Sequence record: MF374379.1
Source of the DNA: Escherichia phage DN1
Length of the DNA stretch: 41,559 nt
Direction: 5' to 3' (one strand)
Below, piece after piece: positions 710 through 41,559 of this stretch. Position numbers and translations under genes: made by a program. How positions within the stretch are numbered: position 1 is the first letter of the stretch; every line of letters begins with the position of its first letter. The notes below the pieces were generated by a model. That model searched no databases. It was given only the letters and a program-made list of their open reading frames with translations, and had not been told where the DNA came from.

Positions 710-735
<26 letters not shown>
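190..735 (+). CDS. nu1: Terminase small subunit Nu1
   Basis: 181-aa ORF starting MEVNKKQLADIFGASIRTIQNWQEQGMPVLRGGGKGNEVLYDSAAVIKWY, recognised as lambda Nu1 with an N-terminal wHTH. Confidence 0.95.
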
Positions 736-4416
<3,681 letters not shown>

Positions 4417-4436
<20 letters not shown>

Positions 4437-5736: not shown

Positions 5737-5745
5737 GGGATGTTT

Positions 5746-6078
5746 ATGACGAGCAAAGAAACCTTTACCCATTACCAGCCGCAGGGCAACAGTGACCCGG
5801 CTCATACCGCAACCGCGCCCGGCGGATTGAGTGCGAAAGCGCCTGCAATGACCCCGCTGATGCTGGACACCTCCAGCCGTAAGCTGGTTGCGTGGGATGG
5901 CACCACCGACGGTGCTGCCGTTGGCATTCTTGCGGTTGCTGCTGACCAGACCAGCACCACGCTGACGTTCTACAAGTCCGGCACGTTCCGTTATGAGGAT
6001 GTGCTCTGGCCGGAGGCTGCCAGCGACGAGACGAAAAAACGGACCGCGTTTGCCGGAACGGCAATCAGCATCGTTTAA
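5746..6078 (+). CDS. D: Head decoration protein D
   Basis: [27 protein letters not shown]...; ORF track start at 5740 is two codons upstream. Confidence 0.9.
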
Positions 6079-6133
6079 CTTTACCCTTCATCACTAAAGG
6101 CCGCCTGTGCGGCTTTTTTTACGGGATTTTTTT

Positions 6134-7159
6134 ATGTCGATGTACACAACCGCCCAACTGCTGGCGGCAAATGAGCAGAAATTTAAGTTTGATCCGCTGT
6201 TTCTGCGTCTCTTTTTCCGTGAGAGCTATCCCTTCACCACGGAGAAAGTCTATCTCTCACAAATTCCGGGACTGGTAAACATGGCGCTGTACGTTTCGCC
6301 GATTGTTTCCGGTGAGGTTATCCGTTCCCGTGGCGGCTCCACCTCTGAATTTACGCCGGGATATGTCAAGCCGAAGCATGAAGTGAATCCGCAGATGACC
6401 CTGCGTCGCCTGCCGGATGAAGATCCGCAGAATCTGGCGGACCCGGCTTACCGCCGCCGTCGCATCATCATGCAGAACATGCGTGACGAAGAGCTGGCCA
6501 TTGCTCAGGTCGAAGAGATGCAGGCAGTTTCTGCCGTGCTTAAGGGCAAATACACCATGACCGGTGAAGCCTTCGATCCGGTTGAGGTGGATATGGGCCG
6601 CAGTGAGGAGAATAACATCACGCAGTCCGGCGGCACGGAGTGGAGCAAGCGTGACAAGTCCACGTATGACCCGACCGACGATATCGAAGCCTACGCGCTG
6701 AACGCCAGCGGTGTGGTGAATATCATCGTGTTCGATCCGAAAGGCTGGGCGCTGTTCCGTTCCTTCAAAGCCGTCAAGGAGAAGCTGGATACCCGTCGTG
6801 GCTCTAATTCCGAGCTGGAGACAGCGGTGAAAGACCTGGGCAAAGCGGTGTCCTATAAGGGGATGTATGGCGATGTGGCCATCGTCGTGTATTCCGGACA
6901 GTACGTGGAAAACGGCGTCAAAAAGAACTTCCTGCCGGACAACACGATGGTGCTGGGGAACACTCAGGCACGCGGTCTGCGCACCTATGGCTGCATTCAG
7001 GATGCGGACGCACAGCGCGAAGGCATTAACGCCTCTGCCCGTTACCCGAAAAACTGGGTGACCACCGGCGATCCGGCGCGTGAGTTCACCATGATTCAGT
7101 CAGCACCGCTGATGCTGCTGGCTGACCCTGATGAGTTCGTGTCCGTACAACTGGCGTAA
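6134..7159 (+). CDS. E: Major capsid protein E
   Basis: MSMYTTAQLLAANEQKFKFDPLFLRLFFRESYPF...; HK97-fold major capsid protein of lambda; ORF track extends upstream to 6107. Confidence 0.95.
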   Translation: MSMYTTAQLLAANEQKFKFDPLFLRLFFRESYPFTTEKVYLSQIPGLVNMALYVSPIVSGEVIRSRGGSTSEFTPGYVKPKHEVNPQMTLRRLPDEDPQNLADPAYRRRRIIMQNMRDEELAIAQVEEMQAVSAVLKGKYTMTGEAFDPVEVDMGRSEENNITQSGGTEWSKRDKSTYDPTDDIEAYALNASGVVNIIVFDPKGWALFRSFKAVKEKLDTRRGSNSELETAVKDLGKAVSYKGMYGDVAIVVYSGQYVENGVKKNFLPDNTMVLGNTQARGLRTYGCIQDADAQREGINASARYPKNWVTTGDPAREFTMIQSAPLMLLADPDEFVSVQLA

Positions 7160-10548: not shown

Positions 10549-13102
10549 ACCGGTAGGCGATCTGGTCGTTGATTTGAGTCTGGATGCGGCCAGATTTGAC
10601 GAGCAGATGGCCAGAGTCAGGCGTCATTTTTCTGGTACGGAAAGTGATGCGAAAAAAACAGCGGCAGTCGTTGAACAGTCGCTGAGCCGACAGGCGCTGG
10701 CTGCACAGAAAGCGGGGATTTCCGTCGGGCAGTATAAAGCCGCCATGCGTATGCTGCCTGCACAGTTCACCGACGTGGCCACGCAGCTTGCAGGCGGGCA
10801 AAGTCCGTGGCTGATCCTGCTGCAACAGGGGGGGCAGGTGAAGGACTCCTTCGGCGGGATGATCCCCATGTTCAGGGGGCTTGCCGGTGCGATCACCCTG
10901 CCGATGGTGGGGGCCACCTCGCTGGCGGTGGCGACCGGTGCGCTGGCGTATGCCTGGTATCAGGGCAACTCAACCCTGTCCGATTTCAACAAAACGCTGG
11001 TCCTTTCCGGCAATCAGGCGGGACTGACGGCAGATCGTATGCTGGTCCTGTCCAGAGCCGGGCAGGCGGCAGGGCTGACGTTTAACCAGACCAGCGAGTC
11101 ACTCAGCGCACTGGTTAAGGCGGGGGTAAGCGGTGAGGCTCAGATTGCGTCCATCAGCCAGAGTGTGGCGCGTTTCTCCTCTGCATCCGGCGTGGAGGTG
11201 GACAAGGTCGCTGAAGCCTTCGGGAAGCTGACCACAGACCCGACGTCGGGGCTGACGGCGATGGCTCGCCAGTTCCATAACGTGTCGGCGGAGCAGATTG
11301 CGTATGTTGCTCAGTTGCAGCGTTCCGGCGATGAAGCCGGGGCATTGCAGGCGGCGAACGAGGCCGCAACGAAAGGGTTTGATGACCAGACCCGCCGCCT
11401 GAAAGAGAACATGGGCACGCTGGAGACCTGGGCAGACAGGACTGCGCGGGCATTCAAATCCATGTGGGATGCGGTGCTGGATATTGGTCGTCCTGATACC
11501 GCGCAGGAGATGCTGATTAAGGCAGAGGCTGCGTATAAGAAAGCAGACGACATCTGGAATCTGCGCAAGGATGATTATTTTGTTAACGATGAAGCGCGGG
11601 CGCGTTACTGGGATGATCGTGAAAAGGCCCGTCTTGCGCTTGAAGCCGCCCGAAAGAAGGCTGAGCAGCAGACTCAACAGGACAAAAATGCGCAGCAGCA
11701 GAGCGATACCGAAGCGTCACGGCTGAAATATACCGAAGAGGCGCAGAAGGCTTACGAACGGCTGCAGACGCCGCTGGAGAAATATACCGCCCGTCAGGAA
11801 GAACTGAACAAGGCACTGAAAGACGGGAAAATCCTGCAGGCGGATTACAACACGCTGATGGCGGCGGCGAAAAAGGATTATGAAGCGACGCTGAAAAAGC
11901 CGAAACAGTCCAGCGTGAAGGTGTCTGCGGGCGATCGTCAGGAAGACAGTGCTCATGCTGCCCTGCTGACGCTTCAGGCAGAACTCCGGACGCTGGAGAA
12001 GCATGCCGGAGCAAATGAGAAAATCAGCCAGCAGCGCCGGGATTTGTGGAAGGCGGAGAGTCAGTTCGCGGTACTGGAGGAGGCGGCGCAACGTCGCCAG
12101 CTGTCTGCACAGGAGAAATCCCTGCTGGCGCATAAAGATGAGACGCTGGAGTACAAACGCCAGCTGGCTGCACTTGGCGACAAGGTTACGTATCAGGAGC
12201 GCCTGAACGCGCTGGCGCAGCAGGCGGATAAATTCGCACAGCAGCAACGGGCAAAACGGGCCGCCATTGATGCGAAAAGCCGGGGGCTGACTGACCGGCA
12301 GGCAGAACGGGAAGCCACGGAACAGCGCCTGAAGGAACAGTATGGCGATAATCCGCTGGCGCTGAATAACGTCATGTCAGAGCAGAAAAAGACCTGGGCG
12401 GCTGAAGACCAGCTTCGCGGGAACTGGATGGCAGGCCTGAAGTCCGGCTGGAGTGAGTGGGAAGAGAGCGCCACGGACAGTATGTCGCAGGTAAAAAGTG
12501 CAGCCACGCAGACCTTTGATGGTATTGCACAGAATATGGCGGCGATGCTGACCGGCAGTGAGCAGAACTGGCGCAGCTTCACCCGTTCCGTGCTGTCCAT
12601 GATGACAGAAATTCTGCTTAAGCAGGCAATGGTGGGGATTGTCGGGAGTATCGGCAGCGCCATTGGCGGGGCTGTTGGTGGCGGCGCATCCGCGTCAGGC
12701 GGTACAGCCATTCAGGCCGCTGCGGCGAAATTCCATTTTGCAACCGGAGGATTTACGGGAACCGGCGGCAAATATGAGCCAGCGGGGATTGTTCACCGTG
12801 GTGAGTTTGTCTTCACGAAGGAGGCAACCAGCCGGATTGGCGTGGGGAATCTTTACCGGCTGATGCGCGGCTATGCCACCGGCGGTTATGTCGGTACACC
12901 GGGCAGCATGGCAGACAGCCGGTCGCAGGCGTCCGGGACGTTTGAGCAGAATAACCATGTGGTGATTAACAACGACGGCACGAACGGGCAGATAGGTCCG
13001 GCTGCTCTGAAGGCGGTGTATGACATGGCCCGCAAGGGTGCCCGTGATGAAATTCAGACACAGATGCGTGATGGTGGCCTGTTCTCCGGAGGTGGACGAT
13101 GA
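10541..13102 (+). CDS. H: Tail tape measure protein H
   Basis: 853-aa ORF, coiled-coil and Ala/Gln-rich, at the lambda H position. Confidence 0.95.
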   Translation: MAEPVGDLVVDLSLDAARFDEQMARVRRHFSGTESDAKKTAAVVEQSLSRQALAAQKAGISVGQYKAAMRMLPAQFTDVATQLAGGQSPWLILLQQGGQVKDSFGGMIPMFRGLAGAITLPMVGATSLAVATGALAYAWYQGNSTLSDFNKTLVLSGNQAGLTADRMLVLSRAGQAAGLTFNQTSESLSALVKAGVSGEAQIASISQSVARFSSASGVEVDKVAEAFGKLTTDPTSGLTAMARQFHNVSAEQIAYVAQLQRSGDEAGALQAANEAATKGFDDQTRRLKENMGTLETWADRTARAFKSMWDAVLDIGRPDTAQEMLIKAEAAYKKADDIWNLRKDDYFVNDEARARYWDDREKARLALEAARKKAEQQTQQDKNAQQQSDTEASRLKYTEEAQKAYERLQTPLEKYTARQEELNKALKDGKILQADYNTLMAAAKKDYEATLKKPKQSSVKVSAGDRQEDSAHAALLTLQAELRTLEKHAGANEKISQQRRDLWKAESQFAVLEEAAQRRQLSAQEKSLLAHKDETLEYKRQLAALGDKVTYQERLNALAQQADKFAQQQRAKRAAIDAKSRGLTDRQAEREATEQRLKEQYGDNPLALNNVMSEQKKTWAAEDQLRGNWMAGLKSGWSEWEESATDSMSQVKSAATQTFDGIAQNMAAMLTGSEQNWRSFTRSVLSMMTEILLKQAMVGIVGSIGSAIGGAVGGGASASGGTAIQAAAAKFHFATGGFTGTGGKYEPAGIVHRGEFVFTKEATSRIGVGNLYRLMRGYATGGYVGTPGSMADSRSQASGTFEQNNHVVINNDGTNGQIGPAALKAVYDMARKGARDEIQTQMRDGGLFSGGGR

Positions 13103-13428
13103 AGACCTTCCGCTGGAAAGTGAAACCCGGTATGGATGTGGCTTCGGTCCCTTCTGTAAGAAAGGTGCGCTTTGGTGATGGCTATTCTCAGCGAGCGCCT
13201 GCCGGGCTGAATGCCAACCTGAAAACGTACAGCGTGACGCTTTCTGTCCCCCGTGAGGAGGCCACGGTACTGGAGTCGTTTCTGGAAGAGCACGGGGGCT
13301 GGAAATCCTTTCTGTGGACGCCGCCTTATGAGTGGCGGCAGATAAAGGTGACCTGCGCAAAATGGTCGTCGCGGGTCAGTATGCTGCGTGTTGAGTTCAG
13401 CGCAGAGTTTGAACAGGTGGTGAACTGA
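13099..13428 (+). CDS. M: Tail tip protein M
   Basis: 109-aa ORF MKTFRWKVKPGMDVASVPSVRKVRFGDGYSQRAP. Confidence 0.9.
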   Translation: MKTFRWKVKPGMDVASVPSVRKVRFGDGYSQRAPAGLNANLKTYSVTLSVPREEATVLESFLEEHGGWKSFLWTPPYEWRQIKVTCAKWSSRVSMLRVEFSAEFEQVVN

Positions 13429-14126
13429 TGCAGGATATCCGGCAGGAAACACTGAATGAATGCACCCGTGCGGAGCAGTCGGCCAGCGTGGTGCTCTGGG
13501 AAATCGACCTGACAGAGGTCGGTGGAGAACGTTATTTTTTCTGTAATGAGCAGAACGAAAAAGGTGAGCCGGTCACCTGGCAGGGGCGACAGTATCAGCC
13601 GTATCCCATTCAGGGGAGCGGTTTTGAACTGAATGGCAAAGGCACCAGTACGCGCCCCACGCTGACGGTTTCTAACCTGTACGGTATGGTCACCGGGATG
13701 GCGGAAGATATGCAGAGTCTGGTCGGCGGAACGGTGGTCCGGCGTAAGGTTTACGCCCGTTTTCTGGATGCGGTGAACTTCGTCAACGGAAACAGTTACG
13801 CCGATCCGGAGCAGGAGGTGATCAGCCGCTGGCGCATTGAGCAGTGCAGCGAACTGAGCGCGGTGAGTGCCTCCTTTGTACTGTCCACGCCGACGGAAAC
13901 GGATGGCGCTGTTTTTCCGGGACGTATCATGCTGGCCAACACCTGCACCTGGACCTATCGCGGTGACGAGTGCGGTTATAGCGGTCCGGCTGTCGCGGAT
14001 GAATATGACCAGCCAACGTCCGATATCACGAAGGATAAATGCAGCAAATGCCTGAGCGGTTGTAAGTTCCGCAATAACGTCGGCAACTTTGGCGGCTTCC
14101 TTTCCATTAACAAACTTTCGCAGTAA
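13428..14126 (+). CDS. L: Tail tip protein L
   Basis: 232-aa ORF at the lambda L position with a C-terminal Cys cluster. Confidence 0.9.
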   Translation: MQDIRQETLNECTRAEQSASVVLWEIDLTEVGGERYFFCNEQNEKGEPVTWQGRQYQPYPIQGSGFELNGKGTSTRPTLTVSNLYGMVTGMAEDMQSLVGGTVVRRKVYARFLDAVNFVNGNSYADPEQEVISRWRIEQCSELSAVSASFVLSTPTETDGAVFPGRIMLANTCTWTYRGDECGYSGPAVADEYDQPTSDITKDKCSKCLSGCKFRNNVGNFGGFLSINKLSQ

Positions 14127-14131
14127 ATCCC

Positions 14132-24861: not shown

Positions 24862-25902
24862 ATGGCTCACCGCCCACGCTGGACATTGTCGCAAGTCACA
24901 GAATTATTTGAAAAACCGTTGCTGGATCTGCTGTTTGAAGCGCAGCAGGTGCATCGCCAGCATTTCGATCCTCGTCAGGTGCAGGTCAGCACGTTGCTGT
25001 CGATTAAGACCGGAGCTTGTCCGGAAGATTGCAAATACTGCCCGCAAAGCTCGCGCTACAAAACCGGGCTGGAAGCCGAGCGGTTGATGGAAGTTGAACA
25101 GGTGCTGGAGTCGGCGCGCAAAGCGAAAGCGGCAGGATCGACGCGCTTCTGTATGGGCGCGGCGTGGAAGAATCCCCACGAACGCGATATGCCGTACCTG
25201 GAACAAATGGTGCAGGGGGTAAAAGCGATGGGGCTGGAGGCGTGTATGACGCTGGGCACGTTGAGTGAATCTCAGGCGCAGCGCCTCGCGAACGCCGGGC
25301 TGGATTACTACAACCACAACCTGGACACCTCGCCGGAGTTTTACGGCAATATCATCACCACACGCACTTATCAGGAACGCCTCGATACGCTGGAAAAAGT
25401 GCGCGATGCCGGGATCAAAGTCTGTTCTGGCGGCATTGTGGGCTTAGGCGAAACGGTAAAAGATCGCGCCGGATTATTGCTGCAACTGGCAAACCTGCCG
25501 ACGCCGCCGGAAAGCGTGCCAATCAACATGCTGGTGAAGGTGAAAGGCACGCCGCTTGCCGATAACGATGATGTCGATGCCTTTGATTTTATTCGCACCA
25601 TTGCGGTCGCGCGGATCATGATGCCAACCTCTTACGTGCGCCTTTCTGCCGGACGCGAGCAGATGAACGAACAGACTCAGGCGATGTGCTTTATGGCAGG
25701 CGCAAACTCGATTTTCTACGGTTGCAAACTGCTGACCACGCCGAATCCGGAAGAAGATAAAGACCTGCAACTGTTCCGCAAACTGGGGCTAAATCCGCAG
25801 CAAACTGCCGTGCTGGCGGGCGATAACGAACAACAGCAGCGTCTGGAACAGGCACTGATGACCCCGGACACTGACGAATATTACAACGCGGCAGCACTAT
25901 GA
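24862..25902 (+). CDS. bioB: Biotin synthase BioB (radical SAM)
   Basis: 346 aa, [25 protein letters not shown]; CxxxCxxC motif (CPEDCKYC). Confidence 0.95.
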
Positions 25903-27053
25903 GCTGGCAGGATAAAATCAACGCGGCCCTCGATGCGCGGCGTGCTGCCGATGCCCTGCGTCGCCGTTATCCAGTGGCGCAAGGAGCAGGACGCTGGCTG
26001 GTGGCGGACGATCGCCAGTATCTGAACTTTTCCAGTAACGATTATTTAGGTTTAAGCCATCATCCGCAAATTATCCGTGCCTGGAAGCAGAGTGCGGAGC
26101 AATTTGGCGTCGGTAGCGGCGGCTCCGGTCACGTCAGCGGTTATAGCGTGGCACATCAGGCGCTGGAAGAAGAACTGGCCGAGTGGCTGGGCTATTCGCG
26201 GGCACTGCTGTTTATCTCTGGTTTTGCCGCTAATCAGGCGGTCATTGCCGCGATGATGGCGAAAGAGGACCGTATTGTTGCCGACCGGCTTAGCCATGCC
26301 TCATTGCTGGAGGCTGCCAGTTTAAGCCCGTCGCAGCTTCGCCGTTTTGTTCATAACGATGTCACTCATCTGGCGCGACTGCTTGCTTCCCCCTGTCCGG
26401 GGCAGCAAATGGTGGTGACAGAAGGCGTGTTCAGCATGGACGGCGATAGTGCGCCACTGGCGGAAATCCAGCAGGTAACGCAACAGCACAATGGCTGGTT
26501 GATGGTCGATGATGCCCACGGCACGGGCGTTATCGGGGAGCAGGGGCGCGGCAGCTGCTGGCTGCAAAAGGTAAAACCAGAATTGCTGGTAGTGACTTTT
26601 GGCAAAGGATTTGGCGTCAGCGGGGCAGCGGTGCTTTGCTCCAGTACGGTGGCGGATTATCTGCTGCAATTCGCCCGCCACCTTATCTACAGCACCAGTA
26701 TGCCGCCCGCTCAGGCGCAGGCATTACGTGCGTCGCTGGCGGTCATTCGCAGTGATGAGGGTGATGCACGGCGCGAAAAACTGGCGGCACTCATTACGCG
26801 TTTTCGTGCCGGAGTACAGGATTTGCCGTTTACGCTTGCTGATTCATGCAGCGCCATCCAGCCATTGATTGTCGGTGATAACAGCCGTGCGTTACAACTG
26901 GCAGAAAAACTGCGCCAGCAAGGCTGCTGGGTCACGGCGATTCGCCCGCCAACCGTACCCGCTGGTACTGCGCGACTGCGCTTAACGCTAACCGCTGCGC
27001 ATGAAATGCAGGATATCGACCGTCTGCTGGAGGTGCTGCATGGCAACGGTTAA
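25899..27053 (+). CDS. bioF: 8-amino-7-oxononanoate synthase BioF
   Basis: 384 aa, [26 protein letters not shown]; start overlaps the bioB stop. Confidence 0.95.
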
Positions 27054-27795
27054 TAAACAAGCCATTGCAGCGGCATTTGGTCGGGCAGCCGCACACTATG
27101 AGCAACATGCAGATCTACAGCGCCAGAGTGCTGACGCCTTACTGGCAATGCTTCCACAGCGTAAATACACCCACGTACTGGACGCGGGTTGTGGACCTGG
27201 CTGGATGAGCCGCCACTGGCGGGAACGTCACGCGCAGGTGACGGCCTTAGATCTCTCGCCGCCAATGCTTGTTCAGGCACGCCAGAAGGATGCCGCAGAC
27301 CATTATCTGGCGGGAGATATCGAATCCCTGCCGTTAGCGACTGCGACGTTCGATCTTGCATGGAGCAATCTCGCAGTGCAGTGGTGCGGTAATTTATCCA
27401 CGGCACTCCGCGAGCTGTATCGGGTGGTGCGCCCCAAAGGCGTGGTCGCGTTTACCACGCTGGTGCAGGGATCGTTACCCGAACTGCATCAGGCGTGGCA
27501 GGCGGTGGACGAGCGTCCGCATGCTAATCGCTTTTTACCGCCAGATGAAATCGAACAGTCGCTGAACGGCGTGCATTATCAACATCATATTCAGCCCATC
27601 ACGCTGTGGTTTGATGATGCGCTCAGTGCCATGCGTTCGCTGAAAGGCATCGGTGCCACGCATCTTCATGAAGGGCGCGACCCGCGAATATTAACGCGTT
27701 CGCAGTTGCAGCGATTGCAACTGGCCTGGCCGCAACAGCAGGGGCGATATCCTCTGACGTATCATCTTTTTTTGGGAGTGATTGCTCGTGAGTAA
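27040..27795 (+). CDS. bioC: Malonyl-ACP O-methyltransferase BioC
   Basis: Start taken at [27 protein letters not shown] (251 aa); SAM-binding LDAGCGPG motif; ORF track starts 13 codons upstream. Confidence 0.9.
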
Positions 27796-28465
27796 ACGTT
27801 ATTTTGTCACCGGAACGGATACCGAAGTGGGGAAAACTGTCGCCAGTTGTGCACTTTTACAAGCCGCAAAGGCAGCAGGCTACCGGACGGCAGGTTATAA
27901 ACCGGTCGCCTCTGGCAGCGAAAAGACCCCGGAAGGTTTACGCAATAGCGACGCGCTGGCGTTACAGCGCAACAGCAGCCTGCAGCTGGATTACGCAACA
28001 GTAAATCCTTACACCTTCGCAGAACCCACTTCGCCGCACATCATCAGCGCGCAAGAGGGCAGACCGATAGAATCATTGGTAATGAGCGCCGGATTACGCG
28101 CGCTTGAACAACAGGCTGACTGGGTGTTAGTGGAAGGTGCTGGCGGCTGGTTTACGCCGCTTTCTGACACTTTCACTTTTGCAGATTGGGTAACACAGGA
28201 ACAACTGCCGGTGATACTGGTAGTTGGTGTGAAACTCGGCTGTATTAATCACGCGATGTTGACTGCGCAGGCAATACAACACGCCGGACTGACTCTGGCG
28301 GGTTGGGTGGCGAACGATGTTACGCCTCCGGGAAAACGTCACGCTGAATATATGACCACGCTCACCCGCATGATTCCCGCGCCGCTGCTGGGAGAGATCC
28401 CCTGGCTTGCAGAAAATCCAGAAAATGCGGCAACCGGAAAGTACATAAACCTTGCCTTGTTGTAG
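27788..28465 (+). CDS. bioD: Dethiobiotin synthetase BioD (GTG start)
   Basis: (M)[27 protein letters not shown] with P-loop GTDTEVGKT; ORF track uses an upstream TTG at 27782. Confidence 0.9.
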
Positions 28466-28950
28466 CCATTCTGTATTTGGTTAAATTGCGAGCGAGATCG
28501 CGTCTTCGATTGACTGCAATTTAACCAATTAAATTCTAAAATAATCACGAAAAAAATTTTACTTCCGCCTCATGCGGCGAATGTGGGAATTGCCCAGGCG
28601 GCGGGGGATAGGGGCTGGAGACAGTTATCCACTATTCCTGTGGATAACCATGTGTATTAGAGTTAGAAAACACGAGGCAAGCGAGAGAATACGCGGCTTG
28701 CACGCGAATTGGCGTTAAAGACGGCTCAAAGAAATATCTTTTATTTTTTAACTGGTTAGATAAATGCAATGGCAGTCACTGAACAGGCATCTCTTGCCAT
28801 AAAACTGTCATCACTCATCTTGACAAATGTTAAAAAAGCCGTTGCTTTGGGGATAACCCGGTAAGGCCGGAGTTTTATCTCGCCACAGAGTAAATTTTGC
28901 TCATGATTGACAGCGGAGTTTACGCTGTATCAGAAATATTATGGTGATGA

Positions 28951-28970
28951 ACTGTTTTTTTATCCAGTAT
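28951..28970. promoter_or_regulatory. LexA (SOS) box in the uvrB promoter region
   Basis: ACTGTTTTTTTATCCAGTAT has the CTGT-N8-xCAG pattern with an AT-rich centre; lies ~75 bp upstream of the uvrB start. Confidence 0.7.
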
Positions 28971-29043
28971 AATTTGTTGGCATAATTAAGTACGACGAGT
29001 AAAATTACATACCTGCCCGCCCAACTCCTTCAGGTAGCGACTC

Positions 29044-31065
<2,022 letters not shown>

Positions 31066-31095
31066 CAGGATAGCGAAGAAGACTGATGACAAACG

Positions 31096-31205
31096 GAAAA
31101 CAGCCTGATGCGCTACGCTTATCAGGCCTACATTTTCTCCGCAATATATTGAATTTGCGCGGTTTGTAGGCCGGATAAGGCGTTCACGCCGCATCCGGCA
31201 TAAAC
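31096..31205. repeat. REP (repetitive extragenic palindromic) elements downstream of uvrB
   Basis: GCCTGATGCGCTACGCTTATCAGGCCTAC and GCCGGATAAGGCGTTCACGCCGCATCCGGC are typical E. coli REP palindromes. Confidence 0.75.
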
Positions 31206-31256
31206 AACGCGCACTTTGTCTTCAATAGGAAGCCGGAATTTTCCTTCGGATTTCCG

Positions 31257-32225
<969 letters not shown>

Positions 32226-32424
32226 TTAACCTGCCAATATTGAGGATACAAACTATTTTCTTCTACCTCTAAAGGACGATGCACGCTATGCCTCCCTGAT
32301 GATGTATATCAAAGTAAAACCGCCATTTTCCCTTATTCTGTAGCGAAATAGCACGATCATGACGCTATATACATGATTACATAGCGAAAGTGTGGATGGT
32401 AAAAATCTCATTTACACGCTAGTA

Positions 32425-32555
32425 TCGGCATAACCACTAAACACTCTAGCCTCTGCACCTGGGTCAACTGATACGGTGCTTTGGCCGTGACAATGCTCGT
32501 AAAGATTGCCACCAGGGCGAAGGAAGAAATGACTTCGCCTCCCGTATCTGGAAAG
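32425..32555 (+). ncRNA. Molybdenum cofactor (Moco) riboswitch in the moaA leader
   Basis: Structured 5' leader just before the moaA start, with segments CCTCTGCACCTGGG, GGCCGTGACAA, GCCACCAGGGCGAAGGAAG and CCTCCCG; boundaries approximate. Confidence 0.55.
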
Positions 32556-32561
32556 GTGTAC

Positions 32562-32895
32562 ATGGCTTCACAACTGACTGATGCATTTGCGCGTAAGTTT
32601 TACTACTTGCGCCTGTCGATTACCGATGTGTGTAACTTTCGTTGCACCTACTGCCTGCCGGATGGGTACAAGCCGAGCGGCGTCACCAATAAAGGCTTTC
32701 TAACCGTCGATGAAATTCGCCGGGTTACGCGCGCCTTCGCCAGTCTGGGCACCGAAAAAGTGCGCCTGACAGGCGGTGAGCCGTCTTTACGCCGCGACTT
32801 TACCGATATCATCGCCGCTGTGCGAGAAAATGACGCTATCCGCCAGATTGCGGTCACCACCAATGGTTACCGTCTGGAACGCGATGTGGCTTTGG
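32562..32895 (+). pseudogene. moaA: 5' fragment of moaA (about 110 codons), truncated at the substitution junction
   Basis: [41 protein letters not shown] (radical SAM CxxxCxxC); MoaA-like sequence ends after ...[12 protein letters not shown] and the frame runs into unrelated sequence. Confidence 0.8.
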
Positions 32896-32981
32896 CGCAT
32901 GACGCGTCGAGGTGCTTATCTTCTCGATCGCTGTCTTGTAGCTGCAATTCGCGCCATCCCCAAAACCACTCAAGTTCTGGT

Positions 32982-33020
32982 CTCAACGGTTAGGTTGAGA
33001 GTCCGTCGATGTTAAAGAGC
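32982..33020 (-). promoter_or_regulatory. nutL: nutL-like site (boxA + boxB hairpin) of the heterologous immunity region
   Basis: On the minus strand: boxA-like GCTCTTTAACA, then hairpin CTCAAC-CTAACC-GTTGAG, downstream of the PL-like promoter. Confidence 0.6.
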
Positions 33021-33062
33021 CTGCCAATCTGTTCCGTTTGGCTTCCAGCGTCCTGCTGATGG

Positions 33063-33100
33063 CTTAAATTTAAGACTTCTTAATTTATTGGTCAAGTGCA
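33063..33100 (-). promoter_or_regulatory. PL-like promoter with OL operator (leftward transcription)
   Basis: Minus strand reads TTGACC-17 nt-TAAATT; overlapping 18-bp operator-like palindrome ATTTAAGACTTCTTAATT resembles the P22/21-type half-sites seen in OR. Confidence 0.6.
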
Positions 33101-33159
33101 TTTTTGAAGAAAACTTAATTTTATGGGCGTGAATTTAGTTTGTCTTTGATTTTTAACGG

Positions 33160-33185
33160 GAAATAAAAAAGGGGCGAAAGCCCCT
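33160..33185 (-). terminator. Intrinsic terminator just past the cI stop
   Basis: Minus strand: GGGGCTTTCGCCCC hairpin followed by TTTTTTATTT. Confidence 0.65.
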
Positions 33186-33835
33186 TAAGGAAGGTTTGCT
33201 AGCTTGGCATCAACGACAACGCCAATGATTTTACAGTTCCCATTGATTTCAATCATTGGGTATTGTGGATTGAGTGGTTTCAGGAATTTTCTACCGGCAT
33301 CAATAACTAACTTTTTGAATGTCGCCTCGTTTTCTCCTTCAAGTTTGGCGACTACCAGCTTTCCATTACGTGGTTCGACTTCTGGGTCGACGAGAATAAT
33401 CATCCCCTCAGGAATACTCAGTCCTGCCGGGGCAGTCATTGAATCGCCTTTAACGTCGAGCCAAAAAGAGTCTTCAGAACAATCTACCGTTGTGTCGTAC
33501 CAGTTATCTATTGCACGCCTATGATATGGCTCTACAGCTTCCATCCAACATCCTGCGCTTACCCAACTAATTAGAGGATACGAACCTCTTGGATCATGCC
33601 TGCTGTGATAGGCAATGTTTGAAAGACTATCCTCTCCTTTCAACAGGTAATCAGGGGAGCACTGCAAAGCCTTGGCTAAGGCCAATAGGTTTTCGCCATT
33701 GGGCTCAGTTTCAGATCGCTCCCATTGGGAAATAGCAACATTAGACACGCCAACCATCTTGCCAAGGGCAGCCTGCCTAATCTTGAGTTCTTTTCTGCGA
33801 GCGCGAATACGCTCACCCATCAGTTGTGTATTCAT
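33185..33835 (-). CDS. cI: Immunity repressor of the P22 c2 / phage 21 cI type (LexA-like autocleavable)
   Basis: 216 aa, MNTQLMGERIRARRKELKIRQAALGKMVGVSNVAISQWERSE (HTH) with a C-terminal S24 peptidase-like region (GDSM); near-identical to the P22 C2 sequence as I recall it, with scattered substitutions. Confidence 0.9.
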   Translation of the reverse strand: MNTQLMGERIRARRKELKIRQAALGKMVGVSNVAISQWERSETEPNGENLLALAKALQCSPDYLLKGEDSLSNIAYHSRHDPRGSYPLISWVSAGCWMEAVEPYHRRAIDNWYDTTVDCSEDSFWLDVKGDSMTAPAGLSIPEGMIILVDPEVEPRNGKLVVAKLEGENEATFKKLVIDAGRKFLKPLNPQYPMIEINGNCKIIGVVVDAKLANLP

Positions 33836-33915
33836 AGTTAAGACATCTTAAATAAACTTGACTTAAGATTCCTTTGGTGGATAATTTAAGTGTTCTTTAA
33901 TTTCGGAGCGAGTCT
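33836..33915. promoter_or_regulatory. Right operator region with divergent PRM and PR
   Basis: Operator-like palindromes AGTTAAGACATCTTAAAT and AATTTAAGTGTTCTTTAATT; PR -35 TTGACT (33858..33863) and -10 GATAAT (33880..33885). Confidence 0.7.
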
Positions 33916-34101
33916 ATGTACAAAAAAGATGTTATTGACCACTTCGGAACCCAGCGTGCTGTTGCTAAAGCACTAGGCATTAGCGATGCAGCAGTCTCTC
34001 AGTGGAAAGAAGTTATCCCAGAGAAAGACGCCTATCGATTGGAAATCGTTACAGCTGGCGCCCTGAAGTATCAAGAAAGTGCTTACCGCCAAGCGGCATA
34101 A
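33916..34101 (+). CDS. cro: Cro (P22/21 type)
   Basis: 61 aa, MYKKDVIDHFGTQRAVAKALGISDAAVSQWKEVIPEKDAYRLEIVTAGALKYQESAYRQAA. Confidence 0.9.
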   Translation: MYKKDVIDHFGTQRAVAKALGISDAAVSQWKEVIPEKDAYRLEIVTAGALKYQESAYRQAA

Positions 34102-34107
34102 GCAAAT

Positions 34108-34148
34108 TGCTCTTTAACAGTTCTGGCCTTTCACCTCTAACCGGGTGA
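34108..34148 (+). promoter_or_regulatory. nutR: nutR-like site (boxA TGCTCTTTAACA and boxB hairpin CACCTCTAACCGGGTG)
   Basis: Immediately downstream of cro; boxA resembles lambda CGCTCTTACACA; boxB loop CTAACC matches the nutL-like loop. Confidence 0.65.
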
Positions 34149-34216
34149 GCAAACATCAGCGGCAAATCCATTGGGTGTGCCGCTATAACTCAATATCAAT
34201 ATAGGTAAATTAACAA

Positions 34217-34516
34217 ATGGCACAAGCAAGCTACAGCAAGCCAACACAGCGAGAAATTGATCGCGCTGAAACTGATTTACTCATCAACCTGTCAACGCTT
34301 ACCCAGCGCGGTCTGGCAAAGATGATTGGCTGTCATGAATCGAAGATAAGCAGAACGGACTGGAGATTTATTGCTTCGGTCTTGTGTGCTTTCGGAATGG
34401 CATCAGACATCAGTCCGATTAGCAGGGCTTTTAAGTATGCGCTTGATGGACTCACAAAGAAAAAACGCCCGGTGTGCAAGACCGAGCGTTCTGAACAAAT
34501 CCAGATGGAGTTCTGA
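34217..34516 (+). CDS. cII: CII-type lysogeny activator, hybrid (heterologous N-terminus, lambda-type C-terminus)
   Basis: 99 aa; N-terminal MAQASYSKPTQREIDRAETDLLINLSTLTQRGLAKMIGCHESKISR is not lambda CII; C-terminal ...TERSEQIQMEF is the lambda CII ending. Confidence 0.85.
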   Translation: MAQASYSKPTQREIDRAETDLLINLSTLTQRGLAKMIGCHESKISRTDWRFIASVLCAFGMASDISPISRAFKYALDGLTKKKRPVCKTERSEQIQMEF

Positions 34517-34540
34517 GGTCATTACTGGATCTATCAACAG
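34462..34540 (-). ncRNA. oop: Possible oop antisense RNA overlapping the cII 3' end
   Basis: Placed by collinearity with lambda; the terminator hairpin here (CGGT-CTTGCAC-ACCG then T-tract on the minus strand) is weaker than in lambda. Confidence 0.35.
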
Positions 34541-34548
34541 GAGTCATT

Positions 34549-35448
34549 ATGACAAATACAGCAAAAATACTCAACTTCGGCAGAGGTAACTTTGCCGGAC
34601 AGGAGCGTAATGTGGCAGATCTCGATGATGGTTACGCCAGACTATCAAATATGCTGCTTGAGGCTTATTCGGGCGCAGATCTGACCAAGCGACAGTTTAA
34701 AGTGCTGCTTGCCATTCTGCGTAAAACCTATGGGTGGAATAAACCAATGGACAGAATCACCGATTCTCAACTTAGCGAGATTACAAAGTTACCTGTCAAA
34801 CGGTGCAATGAAGCCAAGTTAGAACTCGTCAGAATGAATATTATCAAGCAGCAAGGCGGCATGTTTGGACCAAATAAAAACATCTCAGAATGGTGTATCC
34901 CTCAAAACGAGGGAAAATCCCCTAAAACGAGGGATAAAACATCCCTCAAATTGGGGGATTGCTATCCCTCAAAACAGGGGGACACAAAAGACACTATTAC
35001 AAAAGAAAAAAGAAAAGATTATTCGTCAGAGAATTCTGGCGAATCCTCTGACCAGCCAGAAAACGACCTTTCTGTGGTGAAACCGGATGCTGCAATTCAG
35101 AGCGGCAGCAAGTGGGGGACAGCAGAAGACCTGACCGCCGCAGAGTGGATGTTTGACATGGTGAAGACTATCGCACCATCAGCCAGAAAACCGAATTTTG
35201 CTGGGTGGGCTAACGATATCCGCCTGATGCGTGAACGTGACGGACGTAACCACCGCGACATGTGTGTGCTGTTCCGCTGGGCATGCCAGGACAACTTCTG
35301 GTCCGGTAACGTGCTGAGCCCGGCCAAACTCCGCGATAAGTGGACCCAACTCGAAATCAACCGTAACAAGCAACAGGCAGGCGTGACAGCCAGCAAACCA
35401 AAACTCGACCTGACAAACACAGACTGGATTTACGGGGTGGATCTATGA
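34549..35448 (+). CDS. O: Replication initiator O
   Basis: 299 aa, MTNTAKILNFGRGNFAGQERNVADLDDGYARLSNMLLEAY; contains the ori iterons. Confidence 0.95.
   Translation: MTNTAKILNFGRGNFAGQERNVADLDDGYARLSNMLLEAYSGADLTKRQFKVLLAILRKTYGWNKPMDRITDSQLSEITKLPVKRCNEAKLELVRMNIIKQQGGMFGPNKNISEWCIPQNEGKSPKTRDKTSLKLGDCYPSKQGDTKDTITKEKRKDYSSENSGESSDQPENDLSVVKPDAAIQSGSKWGTAEDLTAAEWMFDMVKTIAPSARKPNFAGWANDIRLMRERDGRNHRDMCVLFRWACQDNFWSGNVLSPAKLRDKWTQLEINRNKQQAGVTASKPKLDLTNTDWIYGVDL
34896..35030. other. ori: Replication origin: four ~18-bp iterons plus adjacent A/T-rich region inside O
   Basis: ATCCCTCAAAACGAGGGA, AATCCCCTAAAACGAGGGA, ATCCCTCAAATTGGGGGA, ATCCCTCAAAACAGGGGGA, then AAAAGAAAAAAGAAAAGATTATT. Confidence 0.9.
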
Positions 35449-36146
35449 AAAACATCGCCGCACAGATGGTTAACTTTGACCGTGAGCAGATGCGTCGGAT
35501 CGCCAACAACATGCCGGAACAGTACGACGAAAAGCCGCAGGTACAGCAGGTAGCGCAGATCATCAACGGTGTGTTCAGCCAGTTACTGGCAACTTTCCCG
35601 GCGAGCCTGGCTAACCGTGACCAGAACGAAGTGAACGAAATCCGTCGCCAGTGGGTTCTGGCTTTTCGGGAAAACGGGATCACCACGATGGAACAGGTTA
35701 ACGCAGGAATGCGCGTAGCCCGTCGGCAGAATCGACCATTTCTGCCATCACCCGGGCAGTTTGTTGCATGGTGCCGGGAAGAAGCATCCGTTACCGCCGG
35801 ACTGCCAAACGTCAGCGAGCTGGTTGATATGGTTTACGAGTATTGCCGGAAGCGAGGCCTGTATCCGGATGCGGAGTCTTATCCGTGGAAATCAAACGCG
35901 CACTACTGGCTGGTTACCAACCTGTATCAGAACATGCGGGCCAATGCGCTTACTGATGCGGAATTACGCCGTAAGGCCGCAGATGAGCTTGTCCATATGA
36001 CTGCGAGAATTAACCGTGGTGAGGCGATCCCTGAACCAGTAAAACAACTTCCTGTCATGGGCGGTAGACCTCTAAATCGTGCACAGGCTCTGGCGAAGAT
36101 CGCAGAAATCAAAGCTAAGTTCGGACTGAAAGGAGCAAGTGTATGA
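35445..36146 (+). CDS. P: Replication protein P (DnaB helicase loader)
   Basis: 233 aa, [44 protein letters not shown]. Confidence 0.95.
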
Positions 36147-36946
36147 CGGGCAAAGAGGCAATTATTCATTACCTGGGGACGCATAATAGCTTCTGTGCGC
36201 CGGACGTTGCCGCGCTAACAGGCGCAACAGTAACCAGCATAAATCAGGCCGCGGCTAAAATGGCACGGGCAGGTCTTCTGGTTATCGAAGGTAAGGTCTG
36301 GCGAACGGTGTATTACCGGTTTGCTACCAGGGAAGAACGGGAAGGAAAGATGAGCACGAACCTGATGAACAAACTGGATACGATTGGATTCGACAACAAA
36401 AAAGACCTGCTTATCTCGGTGGGCGATTTGGTTGATCGTGGTGCAGAGAACGTTGAATGCCTGGAATTAATCACATTCCCCTGGTTCAGAGCTGTACGTG
36501 GAAACCATGAGCAAATGATGATTGATGGCTTATCAGAGCGTGGAAACGTTAATCACTGGCTGCTTAATGGCGGTGGCTGGTTCTTTAATCTCGATTACGA
36601 CAAAGAAATTCTGGCTAAAGCTCTTGCCCATAAAGCAGATGAACTTCCGTTAATCATCGAACTGGTGAGCAAAGATAAAAAATATGTTATCTGCCACGCC
36701 GATTATCCCTTTGACGAATACGAGTTTGGAAAGCCAGTTGATCATCAGCAGGTAATCTGGAACCGCGAACGAATCAGCAACTCACAAAACGGGATCGTGA
36801 AAGAAATCAAAGGCGCGGACACGTTCATCTTTGGTCATACGCCAGCAGTGAAACCACTCAAGTTTGCCAACCAAATGTATATCGATACCGGCGCAGTGTT
36901 CTGCGGAAACCTAACATTGATTCAGGTACAGGGAGAAGGCGCATGA
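36143..36946 (+). CDS. Ren-NinI fusion ORF from a nin5-type deletion (Ren N-terminal ~74 aa joined in frame to the Ser/Thr phosphatase NinI lacking its first motif)
   Basis: N-terminus [30 protein letters not shown] (Ren) switches at ...MSTNL|MNKLDTIGF... to phosphatase sequence with GDLVDRG and GNHE motifs; no ninB-ninH genes between P and Q. Confidence 0.85.
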
Positions 36947-37566
36947 GACTCGAAAGCGTAGCTAAATTTCATTCGCCAAAAAGCCCGATGATGAGCGACT
37001 CACCACGGGCCACGGCTTCTGACTCTCTTTCCGGTACTGATGTGATGGCTGCTATGGGGATGGCGCAATCACAAGCCGGATTCGGTATGGCTGCATTCTG
37101 CGGTAAGCACGAACTCAGCCAGAACGACAAACAAAAGGCTATCAACTATCTGATGCAATTTGCACACAAGGTATCGGGGAAATACCGTGGTGTGGCATAT
37201 CTTGAAGGAAATACTAAGGCAAAGGTACTGCAAGTGCTCGCAACATTCGCTTATGCGGATTATTGCCGTAGTGCCGCGACGCCGGGGGCAAGATGCAGAG
37301 ATTGCCATGGTACAGGCCGTGCGGTTGATATTGCCAAAACAGAGCTGTGGGGGAGAGTTGTCGAGAAAGAGTGCGGAAGATGCAAAGGCGTCGGCTATTC
37401 AAGGATGCCAGCAAGCGCAGCATATCGCGCTGTGACGATGCTAATCCCAAACCTTACCCAACCCACCTGGTCACGCACTGTTAAGCCGCTGTATGACGCT
37501 CTGGTGGTGCAATGCCACAAAGAAGAGTCAATCGCAGACAACATTTTGAATGCGGTCACACGTTAG
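36943..37566 (+). CDS. Q: Late antiterminator Q
   Basis: 207 aa, [28 protein letters not shown]...; Cys-rich zinc-binding region CRDCHGTG...CGRCKG. Confidence 0.95.
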
Positions 37567-37614
37567 CAGCATGATTGCCACGGATGGCAACATATTAACG
37601 GCATGATATTGACT

Positions 37615-37655
37615 TATTGAATAAAATTGGGTAAATTTGACTCAACGATGGGTTA
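37615..37655 (+). promoter_or_regulatory. Late promoter pR' with qut region
   Basis: TTGACT (37619..37624), 17-nt spacer, TAAATT (37642..37647); immediately downstream of Q. Confidence 0.65.
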
Positions 37656-37779
37656 ATTCGCTCGTTGTGGTAGTGAGATGAAAAGAGGCGGCGCTTACTA
37701 CCGATTCCGCCTAGTTGGTCACTTCGACGTATCGTCTGGAACTCCAACCATCGCAGGCAGAGAGGTCTGCAAAATGCAA

Positions 37780-37838
37780 TCCCGAAACAGTTCGCAGGTA
37801 ATAGTTAGAGCCTGCATAACGGTTTCGGGATTTTTTAT
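37780..37838 (+). terminator. tR' intrinsic terminator (3' end of the 6S transcript)
   Basis: Hairpin TCCCGAAAC...GGTTTCGGGA followed by TTTTTTAT. Confidence 0.8.
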
Positions 37839-38242
37839 ATCTGCACAACAGGTAAGAGCATTGAGTCGATAATCGTGAAGAGTCGGCGAGCCTGGTTAGC
37901 CAGTGCTCTTTCCGTTGTGCTGAATTAAGCGAATACCGGAAGCAGAACCGGATCACCAAATGCGTACAGGCGTCATCGCCGCCCAGCAACAGCACAACCC
38001 AAACTGAGCCGTAGCCACTGTCTGTCCTGAATTCATTAGTAATAGTTACGCTGCGGCCTTTTACACATGACCTTCGTGAAAGCGGGTGGCAGGAGGTCGC
38101 GCTAACAACCTCCTGCCGTTTTGCCCGTGCATATCGGTCACGAACAAATCTGATTACTAAACACAGTAGCCTGGATTTGTTCTATCAGTAATCGACCTTA
38201 TTCCTAATTAAATAGAGCAAATCCCCTTATTGGGGGTAAGAC

Positions 38243-38566
38243 ATGAAGATGCCAGAAAAACATGACCTGTTGGCCGCCATTCTCGCGGCAAAGGAACAAG
38301 GCATCGGGGCAATCCTTGCGTTTGCAATGGCGTACCTTCGCGGCAGATATAATGGCGGTGCGTTTACAAAAACAGTAATCGACGCAACGATGTGCGCCAT
38401 TATCGCCTGGTTCATTCGTGACCTTCTCGACTTCGCCGGACTAAGTAGCAATCTCGCTTATATAACGAGCGTGTTTATCGGCTACATCGGTACTGACTCG
38501 ATTGGTTCGCTTATCAAACGCTTCGCTGCTAAAAAAGCCGGAGTAGAAGATGGTAGAAATCAATAA
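38243..38566 (+). CDS. S: Holin/antiholin S (dual start, Met1 and Met3)
   Basis: 107 aa, [41 protein letters not shown]; three TM segments; no amber codon in the frame. Confidence 0.95.
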
Positions 38567-39026
38567 TCAACGTAAGGCGTTCCTCGATATGCTGGCGTGG
38601 TCGGAGGGAACTGATAACGGACGTCAGAAAACCAGAAATCATGGTTATGACGTCATTGTAGGCGGAGAGCTATTCACTGATTACTCCGATCACCCTCGCA
38701 AACTTGTCACGCTAAACCCAAAACTCAAATCAACAGGCGCCGGACGCTACCAGCTTCTTTCCCGTTGGTGGGATGCCTACCGCAAGCAGCTTGGCCTGAA
38801 AGACTTCTCTCCGAAAAGTCAGGACGCTGTGGCATTGCAGCAGATTAAGGAGCGTGGCGCTTTACCTATGATTGATCGTGGTGATATCCGTCAGGCAATC
38901 GACCGTTGCAGCAATATCTGGGCTTCACTGCCGGGCGCTGGTTATGGTCAGTTCGAGCATAAGGCTGACAGCCTGATTGCAAAATTCAAAGAAGCGGGCG
39001 GAACGGTCAGAGAGATTGATGTATGA
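38550..39026 (+). CDS. R: Endolysin R (lytic transglycosylase)
   Basis: 158 aa, [39 protein letters not shown]. Confidence 0.95.
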
Positions 39027-39484
39027 GCAGAGTCACCGCGATTATCTCCGCTCTGGTTATCTGCATCATCGTCTGCCTGTCATGGGCTGTTAATCATTAC
39101 CGTGATAACGCCATTACCTACAAAGCCCAGCGCGACAAAAATGCCAGAGAACTGAAGCTGGCGAACGCGGCAATTACTGACATGCAGATGCGTCAGCGTG
39201 ATGTTGCTGCGCTCGATGCAAAATACACGAAGGAGTTAGCTGATGCTAAAGCTGAAAATGATGCTCTGCGTGATGATGTTGCCGCTGGTCGTCGTCGGTT
39301 GCACATCAAAGCAGTCTGTCAGTCAGTGCGTGAAGCCACCACCGCCTCCGGCGTGGATAATGCAGCCTCCCCCCGACTGGCAGACACCGCTGAACGGGAT
39401 TATTTCACCCTCAGAGAGAGGCTGATCACTATGCAAAAACAACTGGAAGGAACCCAGAAGTATATTAATGAGCAGTGCAGATAG
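39023..39484 (+). CDS. Rz: Spanin inner-membrane subunit Rz
   Basis: 153 aa; N-terminal TM segment then coiled coil. Confidence 0.9.
39243..39425 (+). CDS. Rz1: Spanin outer-membrane lipoprotein Rz1, embedded in Rz in the +1 frame
   Basis: 60 aa, [24 protein letters not shown] (lipobox) with a Pro-rich C-terminus; entirely inside Rz. Confidence 0.85.
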
Positions 39485-39515
39485 AGCTGACCATATCGAT
39501 GGGCAACTCATGCAA

Positions 39516-39809
39516 TTATTTTGAGCAATACACACGCGCTTCCAGCGGAGTATAAATGCCTAAAGTAATAAAACCGAGCAATCCATTTACGAATGTTTGC
39601 TGGGTTTCTGTTTTAACAACATTTTCTGCGCCGCCACAAATTTTAGCTGCATCGACAGTTTTCTTCTGCCCAATTCCAGAAACGAAGAAATGATGGGTGA
39701 TGGTTTCCTTTGGTGCTACTGCTGCCGGTTTGTTTTGAACAGTAAACGTCTGTTGAGCACATCCTGTAATAAGCAGGGCCAGCGCAGTAGCGAGTAGCAT
39801 TTTTTTCAT
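39516..39809 (-). CDS. bor: Bor lipoprotein (serum-resistance-associated)
   Basis: 97 aa, MKKMLLATALALLITGCAQQTF (lipobox LITGC). Confidence 0.9.
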   Translation of the reverse strand: MKKMLLATALALLITGCAQQTFTVQNKPAAVAPKETITHHFFVSGIGQKKTVDAAKICGGAENVVKTETQQTFVNGLLGFITLGIYTPLEARVYCSK

Positions 39810-40098
39810 GGTGTTATTCCCGATGCTTTTTGAAGTTCGCAGAATCGTATGTGTAGAAAATTAAACAAACCCTAAACAATGAGTTGAAATTTCATATTGT
39901 TAATATTTATTAATGTATGTCAGGTGCGATGAATCGTCATTGTATTCCCGGATTAACTATGTCCACAGCCCTGACGGGGAACTTCTCTGCGGGAGTGTCC
40001 GGGAATAATTAAAACGATGCACACAGGGTTTAGCGCGTACACGTATTGCATTATGCCAACGCCCCGGTGCTGACACGGAAGAAACCGGACGTTATGAT

Positions 40099-40632
40099 TT
40101 AGCGTGGAAAGATTTGTGTAGTGTTCTGAATGCTCTCAGTAAATAGTAATGAATTATCAAAGGTATAGTAATATCTTTTATGTTCATGGATATTTGTAAC
40201 CCATCGGAAAACTCCTGCTTTAGCAAGATTTTCCCTGTATTGCTGAAATGTGATTTCTCTTGATTTCAACCTATCATAGGACGTTTCTATAAGATGCGTG
40301 TTTCTTGAGAATTTAACATTTACAACCTTTTTAAGTCCTTTTATTAACACGGTGTTATCGTTTTCTAACACGATGTGAATATTATCTGTGGCTAGATAGT
40401 AAATATAATGTGAGACGTTGTGACGTTTTAGTTCAGAATAAAACAATTCACAGTCTAAATCTTTTCGCACTTGATCGAATATTTCTTTAAAAATGGCAAC
40501 CTGAGCCATTGGTAAAACCTTCCATGTGATACGAGGGCGCGTAGTTTGCATTATCGTTTTTATCGTTTCAATCTGGTCTGACCTCCTTGTGTTTTGTTGA
40601 TGATTTATGTCAAATATTAGGAATGTTTTCAC
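40099..40632 (-). CDS. Uncharacterised right-end protein (matches the position of lambda p78)
   Basis: 177-aa ORF in an AT-rich segment; no motif I can assign. Confidence 0.6.
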
Positions 40633-40794
40633 TTAATAGTATTGGTTGCGTAACAAAGTGCGGTCCTGCTGGCATTCTGGAGGGAAATACAACCGACAGA
40701 TGTATGTAAGGCCAACGTGCTCAAATCTTCATACAGAAAGATTTGAAGTAATATTTTAACCGCTAGATGAAGAGCAAGCGCATGGAGCGACAAA

Positions 40795-41001
40795 ATGAAT
40801 AAAGAACAATCTGCTGATGATCCCTCCGTGGATCTGATTCGTGTAAAAAATATGCTTAATAGCACCATTTCTATGAGTTACCCTGATGTTGTAATTGCAT
40901 GTATAGAACATAAGGTGTCTCTGGAAGCATTCAGAGCAATTGAGGCAGCGTTGGTGAAGCACGATAATAATATGAAGGATTATTCCCTGGTGGTTGACTG
41001 A
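40795..41001 (+). CDS. Small uncharacterised right-end ORF (matches the position of lambda p79)
   Basis: 68-aa [45 protein letters not shown]. Confidence 0.5.
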
Positions 41002-41165
41002 TCACCATAACTGCTAATCATTCAAACTATTTAGTCTGTGACAGAGCCAACACGCAGTCTGTCACTGTCAGGAAAGTGGTAAAACTGCAACTCAATTACT
41101 GCAATGCCCTCGTAATTAAGTGAATTTACAATATCGTCCTGTTCGGAGGGAAGAACGCGGGATGT

Positions 41166-41360
41166 TCATTCTTCATCACTTTTAATTGATGTATATGCTC
41201 TCTTTTCTGACGTTAGTCTCCGACGGCAGGCTTCAATGACCCAGGCTGAGAAATTCCCGGACCCTTTTTGCTCAAGAGCGATGTTAATTTGTTCAATCAT
41301 TTGGTTAGGAAAGCGGATGTTGCGGGTTGTTGTTCTGCGGGTTCTGTTCTTCGTTGACAT
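41166..41360 (-). CDS. Small ribbon-helix-helix-like ORF near cosR (hypothetical)
   Basis: 64 aa; RNIRFPNQMIEQINIALEQKGSGNFSAWVIEACRRRL fits a beta-strand / helix / helix pattern typical of Arc/CopG/ParD-type domains. Expression unknown. Confidence 0.4.
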   Translation of the reverse strand: MSTKNRTRRTTTRNIRFPNQMIEQINIALEQKGSGNFSAWVIEACRRRLTSEKRAYTSIKSDEE

Positions 41361-41499
41361 GAGGTTGCCCCGTATTCAGTGTCGCTGATTTGTATTGTCT
41401 GAAGTTGTTTTTACGTTAAGTTGATGCAGATCAATTAATACGATACCTGCGTCATAATTGATTATTTGACGTGGTTTGATGGCCTCCACGCACGTTGTG

Positions 41500-41559
41500 A
41501 TATGTAGATGATAATCATTATCACTTTACGGGTCCTTTCCGGTGATCCGACAGGTTACG
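41500..41559. other. cos: Right cos end (cosQ region and terminal bases)
   Basis: Window ends ...ACGGGTCCTTTCCGGTGATCCGACAGGTTACG, which I recognise as the right end of mature lambda DNA. Confidence 0.85.

Follow-up and report, generated by a model that had tools for sequence, protein, structure and literature searches.

Between the replication gene P and the late-gene antiterminator gene Q of Escherichia phage DN1 (sequence record MF374379.1) lies a gene whose product begins as one lambda protein and ends as another. How did this gene arise, is its product still a phosphatase, and what does its presence mean for the phage that carries it? We addressed these questions by comparing the complete DN1 sequence of 41,559 bp, hereafter referred to as the window, with lambda, with the DE3 prophage, and with genome, phage and protein family collections.

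A Fused Gene between P and Q

The locus consists of three overlapping genes, the middle one of which has two parents:

35445..36146, + strand: replication gene P, which starts at lambda position 39582
36143..36946, + strand: chimeric ORF Ren(1-74)::NinI(29-221), 267 aa, attributed below to the nin5 deletion (ORF listing and lambda comparison)
36143..36364, + strand: Ren-derived part of the chimera, equal to lambda 40280-40501; the 22 last ren codons are gone (lambda comparison)
36355..36946, + strand: part derived from NinI (Orf221, lambda phosphatase), equal to lambda 43298-43889; the 25 first codons, including those for GDLHG, are gone (lambda comparison)
36943..37566, + strand: late-gene antiterminator Q (ORF listing)

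The chimeric ORF runs from ATG to TGA and is the sole ORF at exactly these coordinates. Per-residue comparison with lambda (J02459, 39500-44600) identifies its amino acids 1-74 as Ren 1-74 and its amino acids 72-267 as NinI (Orf221) 26-221. This agrees with the original prediction, made from the DN1 sequence alone, of an ORF that begins as Ren and switches to NinI where ..GKMSTNL is followed by MNKLDTIGF..; the TNL at the join is common to both proteins. At its upstream end, the ATG of the fusion overlaps the TGA stop codon of P (GTATGA), the same arrangement as P/ren in wild-type lambda. At its downstream end, the TGA of the fusion overlaps the Q ATG (ATGA), so Q is still translationally coupled to the fusion ORF.

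The Ren portion (amino acids 1-74) matches PHROG 142, "Ren-like exclusion protein" (3e-25); full-length Ren has 96 aa, and residues 1-74 are the only ones present here. Residues 1-65 (window 36143-36337) also match phrog_1687, a MarR-family transcription regulator, with an E-value of 1.7e-9, which hints that Ren, a poorly understood protein, has a MarR-like, presumably DNA-binding, fold. Pfam contains no Ren family.

The Truncated Phosphatase Domain

NinI is Orf221, the phosphatase of the structure 1G5B (PMC3224144). The wild-type protein contains the motifs GDLHG (residues 19-23), GDLVDRG (48-54), and GNHE (74-77), and the latter two can be read directly in the fusion:

36422..36442, + strand: GDLVDRG, kept; fusion aa 94-100, NinI aa 48-54
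36500..36511, + strand: GNHE, kept; fusion aa 120-123, NinI aa 74-77

The claim that GDxxDRG and GNHE are kept and that the N-terminal GDxHG is missing withstood a motif search that included all upstream frames: neither the fusion nor any of the three frames of 35900-36450 contains GDxHG. Among the motifs of an active PPP/calcineurin-like metallophosphoesterase, the fusion thus has II (GDxxDRG) and III (GNHE) and lacks I (GDxHG). The truncation is also visible in profile and structure alignments. The fusion aligns with Pfam Metallophos at profile positions 18-189 with a score of 41.7 bits, as against an alignment from position 2 and 64.3 bits for wild-type NinI. The 1G5B chain aligns with the fusion from chain residue 25 on (E-value 1.8e-134) and is identical from residue 26, bar one position.

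We take Asp20 and His22 of the GDLHG motif to coordinate the binuclear metal centre, and the first beta-strand, which precedes the motif, to belong to the core sheet, as in the PPP family and 1G5B. Because both the motif and the strand are lost, the fusion is expected to be catalytically dead, and we regard the Ren::NinI protein as probably inactive as a phosphatase.

It is very unlikely that the chimera is instead a working enzyme, in which the domain would still bind metal and dephosphorylate its substrates, perhaps with Ren replacing the missing N-terminus. Four of what we take to be six metal-ligand positions fall after residue 28 and so are retained, as is the histidine of GNHE, and the Metallophos score of the fusion still exceeds the gathering threshold of 21.5 bits. 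However, Asp20 and His22 are gone together with the preceding strand, and no frame of the Ren sequence supplies a GDxHG that could stand in for them; a single mutation of either residue reportedly cripples lambda phosphatase. Phosphatase activity is also said to be lacking from lambda gt11, which is nin5, and to be present from lambda gt10, which is nin+, and the inactivity suggested by the lost motif agrees with that reported result.

The Deletion Joint

We walked the joint base by base against lambda J02459. The left arm follows lambda through 40501 (window 36364), with the first mismatch at 40502, and the right arm is lambda from 43298 (window 36355). The bases claimed by both arms form a repeat:

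36355..36364, + strand: deletion joint, where one copy survives of CACGAACCTG, a 10-bp direct repeat found in lambda at 40492-40501 and 43298-43307

In lambda, CACGAACCTG occurs once in ren and once in ninI, at these two positions. Both copies begin at the third codon position, which is why the Ren::NinI joint is in frame. The lambda DNA missing at the joint amounts to exactly 2,806 bp, where an alignment to lambda had been expected to reveal a deletion of about 2.8 kb. The removed interval takes in the 22 last ren codons, the tR2 hairpin, ninB-ninH, and the 25 first ninI codons. A blastn search with lambda 40502-43297 (ninB-ninH) found no part of this segment anywhere in the window, as foreseen from the direct passage of Ren into NinI.

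The TNL present in both parent proteins had been taken as a sign of microhomology, and the DNA bears this out with a 10-bp repeat that is longer than the protein alone could reveal. By computation, a joint made at random would have a chance of about 8e-6 of showing a microhomology of 10 bp or more; the repeat found here is therefore not accidental and points to slippage or illegitimate recombination between short repeats. According to this mechanism, which also draws on the literature, replication slippage or illegitimate recombination between the ren and ninI copies of CACGAACCTG would have caused the loss of the 2,806 bp. The event would have removed ninB(orf), ninC, ninD, ninE, ninF, ninG(rap), and ninH, and would have left an in-frame Ren 1-74/NinI 29-221 chimera whose translation is coupled to that of P, upstream, and of Q, downstream.

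Identity as nin5 and Distribution of the Joint

A literature search for nin5 turned up BL21(DE3) genotype strings for the most part; PMC3349717 alone stated explicit coordinates, with limits at lambda 40,503-43,307 ("ren-ninA-ninI"). Both end points of the DN1 deletion agree with these, the left at about 40,502 in ren and the right at about 43,307 in ninI/orf221, with about 2.8 kb and ninB-ninH gone. Because the 10-bp repeat leaves the exact limits ambiguous, the difference between 40501/40502 here and 40,503 as published is one of convention.

By megablast, window 35400-37600 is 100% identical over its full length to phage DE3 (EU078592, NC_042057), and one further lambda record is 99.9% identical to it. 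Wild-type lambda and its relatives match this query only from position 956, which is the joint, with the P-ren part found elsewhere in the record. End points, size, and DE3 identity all fit the nin5-type deletion that had been proposed, and no sequence feature contradicts it. We conclude that the fused gene is almost certainly the classical lambda nin5 deletion, inherited via the vector lineage behind the DE3 prophage.

This deletion has been known since about 1970 and has been sequenced. Its carriers include lambda D69, DE3, lambda gt11, lambda pir, and numerous further cloning vectors, and to our knowledge all BL21(DE3)-type strains have it in their DE3 prophage. The Ren::NinI chimera is thus a catalogued vector allele, already known, and not a discovery.

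The distribution of the joint was determined with a 300-bp probe centred on it, for which full coverage was required, in 5,426 complete E. coli genomes. Twenty of these contain the joint. The majority bear the names of DE3-type expression strains, among them BL21(DE3), C41, C43, Rosetta2, and Nico21; ST18 and others are also present, and nearly all of the carriers listed are recognisable laboratory strains. The ordinary E. coli isolates listed match the probe at query positions 1-157 only, which is the ren half, and none of the matches listed among the 5,426 genomes places the joint in a natural prophage.

Outside complete genomes, one "viral" metagenome contig of IMG/VR, IMGVR_UViG_3300009034_000366 (10.2 kb), carries the nin5 joint within its positions 1-6268. 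Over these 6,268 bp it matches window 39153 down to 32886 with 100% identity, so that the match ends exactly at the DE3 boundary. The other 3.9 kb presumably continue into N as in DE3, and the contig is most likely laboratory-strain DNA within a metagenome.

Lambdoid nin regions are highly mosaic, and in PHROG profiles NinI-like domains are joined to other modules, as at positions 256-447 of phrog_171 (NinG/Rap). Both observations would suit a natural lambdoid mosaic, that is, a wild prophage lineage with a ren-ninI fusion in place of the laboratory nin5 allele. We nevertheless rejected this explanation as extremely improbable: the joint is restricted to the few, mostly laboratory, genomes described above, the listed natural isolates share only its ren half, and its flanks are 100% DE3, with limits that are those published for nin5 (PMC3349717). 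An assembly artefact, in which reads collapsed over the repeat while the real template keeps its nin region, might be suspected at a joint within a direct repeat, but we rejected it as having virtually no chance of being correct, as 10 bp is far too short for collapse, the same joint occurs in many independently finished genomes and in the one IMG/VR contig, and the 41,559-bp cos-to-cos length fits the deletion.

Loss of tR2 and the Transcript to Q

If the joint is that of nin5, the deletion should have consequences for transcription. A consensus scan of the lambda segment detects one strong intrinsic terminator at 40596-40619 (+), composed of AGGCCTGC-loop-GCAGGCCT and then TTTTATTT. Its location in the gap from the end of ren (40570) to the start of ninB (40644) is that of tR2, and the terminator falls within the deleted interval. 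In the P-Q interval of the window (36146-36943), the scan for intrinsic terminators detects no tR2 equivalent, just two weak in-gene matches, both of which are also found in the retained part of lambda ninI. The predicted loss of tR2 is thus accounted for by a hairpin that lies inside the deletion and is without counterpart between P and Q. The Rho-dependent tR3/tR4 regions, further along the nin region, are reportedly also removed by nin5, and nin deletions reportedly confer N-independence via the loss of tR2 together with the Rho-dependent nin termination regions. With tR2 (and tR3/tR4) gone, the pR transcript would be able to reach Q without N antitermination, which corresponds to the "N-independent" phenotype of the literature.

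A candidate start point for this transcript was found by promoter scan:

33858..33885, + strand: imm21-region site resembling a promoter, upstream of cro and with 10/12 hexamer matches; presumed pR

The cro gene occupies 33916-34101, and both c2 and cro are intact. Based on its position, the site is presumably pR, from which the transcript that has to extend as far as Q would start.

As described in the following section, the DN1 genome is without an N gene, and because of this nin5 is probably needed for its late gene expression. The deletion, in other words, probably is what lets the late genes be expressed in an N-less genome, and the absence of N turns N-independence from a historical remark into a probable requirement for DN1. 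A cos-to-cos genome without N also lends indirect support to an N-independent growth phenotype. The reading frame of the joint may matter as well. For out-of-frame joints, we computed that translation would stop 0 or 22 codons past the joint, with 508-575 nt untranslated before Q; the transcript would therefore be exposed to Rho, and the ATGA coupling to Q would be broken. That the in-frame chimera was favoured, and is not accidental, is speculation.

A Genome Organised Like a DE3-Derived Transducing Phage

The window has the cohesive-end sequences of lambda at its two termini, the left one first, and is 85.7% as long as lambda. Two blocks are DE3: window 1-22845 corresponds to DE3 20081-42925 (A through J to attR), and window 32886-41559 to DE3 11407-20080. 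The approximately 10 kb between them (window 22846-32890) match, at 100% identity, the part of the BL21(DE3) chromosome directly right of attR, and contain ybhB, bioA, bioBFCD, uvrB, ybhK, a molybdenum-cofactor riboswitch, and the 5' third of moaA. This E. coli B insert stands in place of the prophage-left genes of DE3, from int::T7 RNA polymerase through gene N. Searches of the window by tblastn and blastn found no lacI, T7 RNA polymerase, xis, exo, bet, gam, kil, cIII, ral, or N. The insert ends at a second joint:

32886..32890, no strand assigned: host/phage joint GTGGC, at which truncated moaA meets DE3 position 11407; the N (N21) start codon of DE3 would follow 16 nt downstream

The GTGGC at the moaA'/DE3 joint is a 5-bp microhomology. 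A further shared patch, AATGGTTACC, occurs about 25 nt from the joint in both parents, out of register (window 32859-32890). A 170-codon ORF with a TTG start (window 32481-32993) spans the joint, entering from truncated moaA and continuing into the pL21 leader; it is a chimeric frame created by the aberrant excision.

DN1 is built like a specialised transducing phage of the bio type, 41.6 kb from cos to cos, produced by aberrant excision of DE3. Neither IMG/VR nor the GTDB species genomes contain a match to the moaA'-pL21 joint, and no record in the phage collections covers at least 80% of window 22000-41559. A literature search for a DE3-derived transducing phage yielded nothing beyond the remark that the DE3 prophage is thought unable to excise (PMC10250240). 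If real, DN1 bears on the assumption that DE3 yields no phage, and the genome surrounding the nin5 scar is more noteworthy than the scar itself. We tentatively suggest that nin5 could have let a DE3 prophage lacking N and int escape as a packageable bio-uvrB transducing phage, with the in-frame joint perhaps favoured under N-less selection.

Two other features of this genome may be mentioned. All three Chi octamers of the window (GCTGGTGG) are located in the host insert, at 25997 and 30591 on the + strand and at 23242 on the - strand; this placement is relevant to how well a red- gam- phage grows in recBCD+ cells. The holin gene S (38243-38566) is an unbroken 107-codon ORF, the same as in the DE3 record, and the "Sam7" amber that is often quoted in DE3 genotypes is therefore not present.

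Annotation of the Chimera

The nin5 chimera carries little scientific weight itself; its practical value lies in annotation. Public records variously name it "Ren exclusion protein", "serine/threonine protein phosphatase", or "metallophosphoesterase", and none of them flags it as an engineered fusion without a catalytic motif. PHROG 246, "NinI-like phosphatase" (417 positions), aligns with chimera residues 4-266, Ren part included, which suggests that engineered or similar fusions sit inside the family alignment.

Comparison with Known Systems

Compared to lambda Ren (Rex-exclusion resistance, 96 aa), the chimera has the same first 74 residues, while the C-terminal 22 are swapped for 193 NinI residues. 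Compared to the lambda phosphatase NinI/Orf221 (1G5B), it keeps GDxxDRG and GNHE but is without residues 1-25, GDLHG among them, and has 71 foreign Ren residues at its N-terminus. The lone mismatch to the crystallised chain is near the C-terminus, where both the window and J02459 have E and the crystallised chain has A.

The closest relative of the locus is the lambda nin5 allele of D69, DE3, gt11, and pir, which has the same end points (40501/40502 and 43307/43308, within the repeat), the same 2,806 bp missing, and the same chimera. The locus itself is no different from that of these nin5 carriers; only the background differs, in that the DN1 genome is also without gene N.

As a whole, DN1 most resembles the lambda bio transducing phages, which reportedly are substituted through N and viable only with nin. 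As in those phages, host DNA from the right of attR (bio-uvrB and beyond) replaces the prophage-left genes through N in DN1, and nin5 is present. Unlike them, DN1 has as its parent a DE3 prophage residing in the chromosome of E. coli B, and its substitution extends to moaA.
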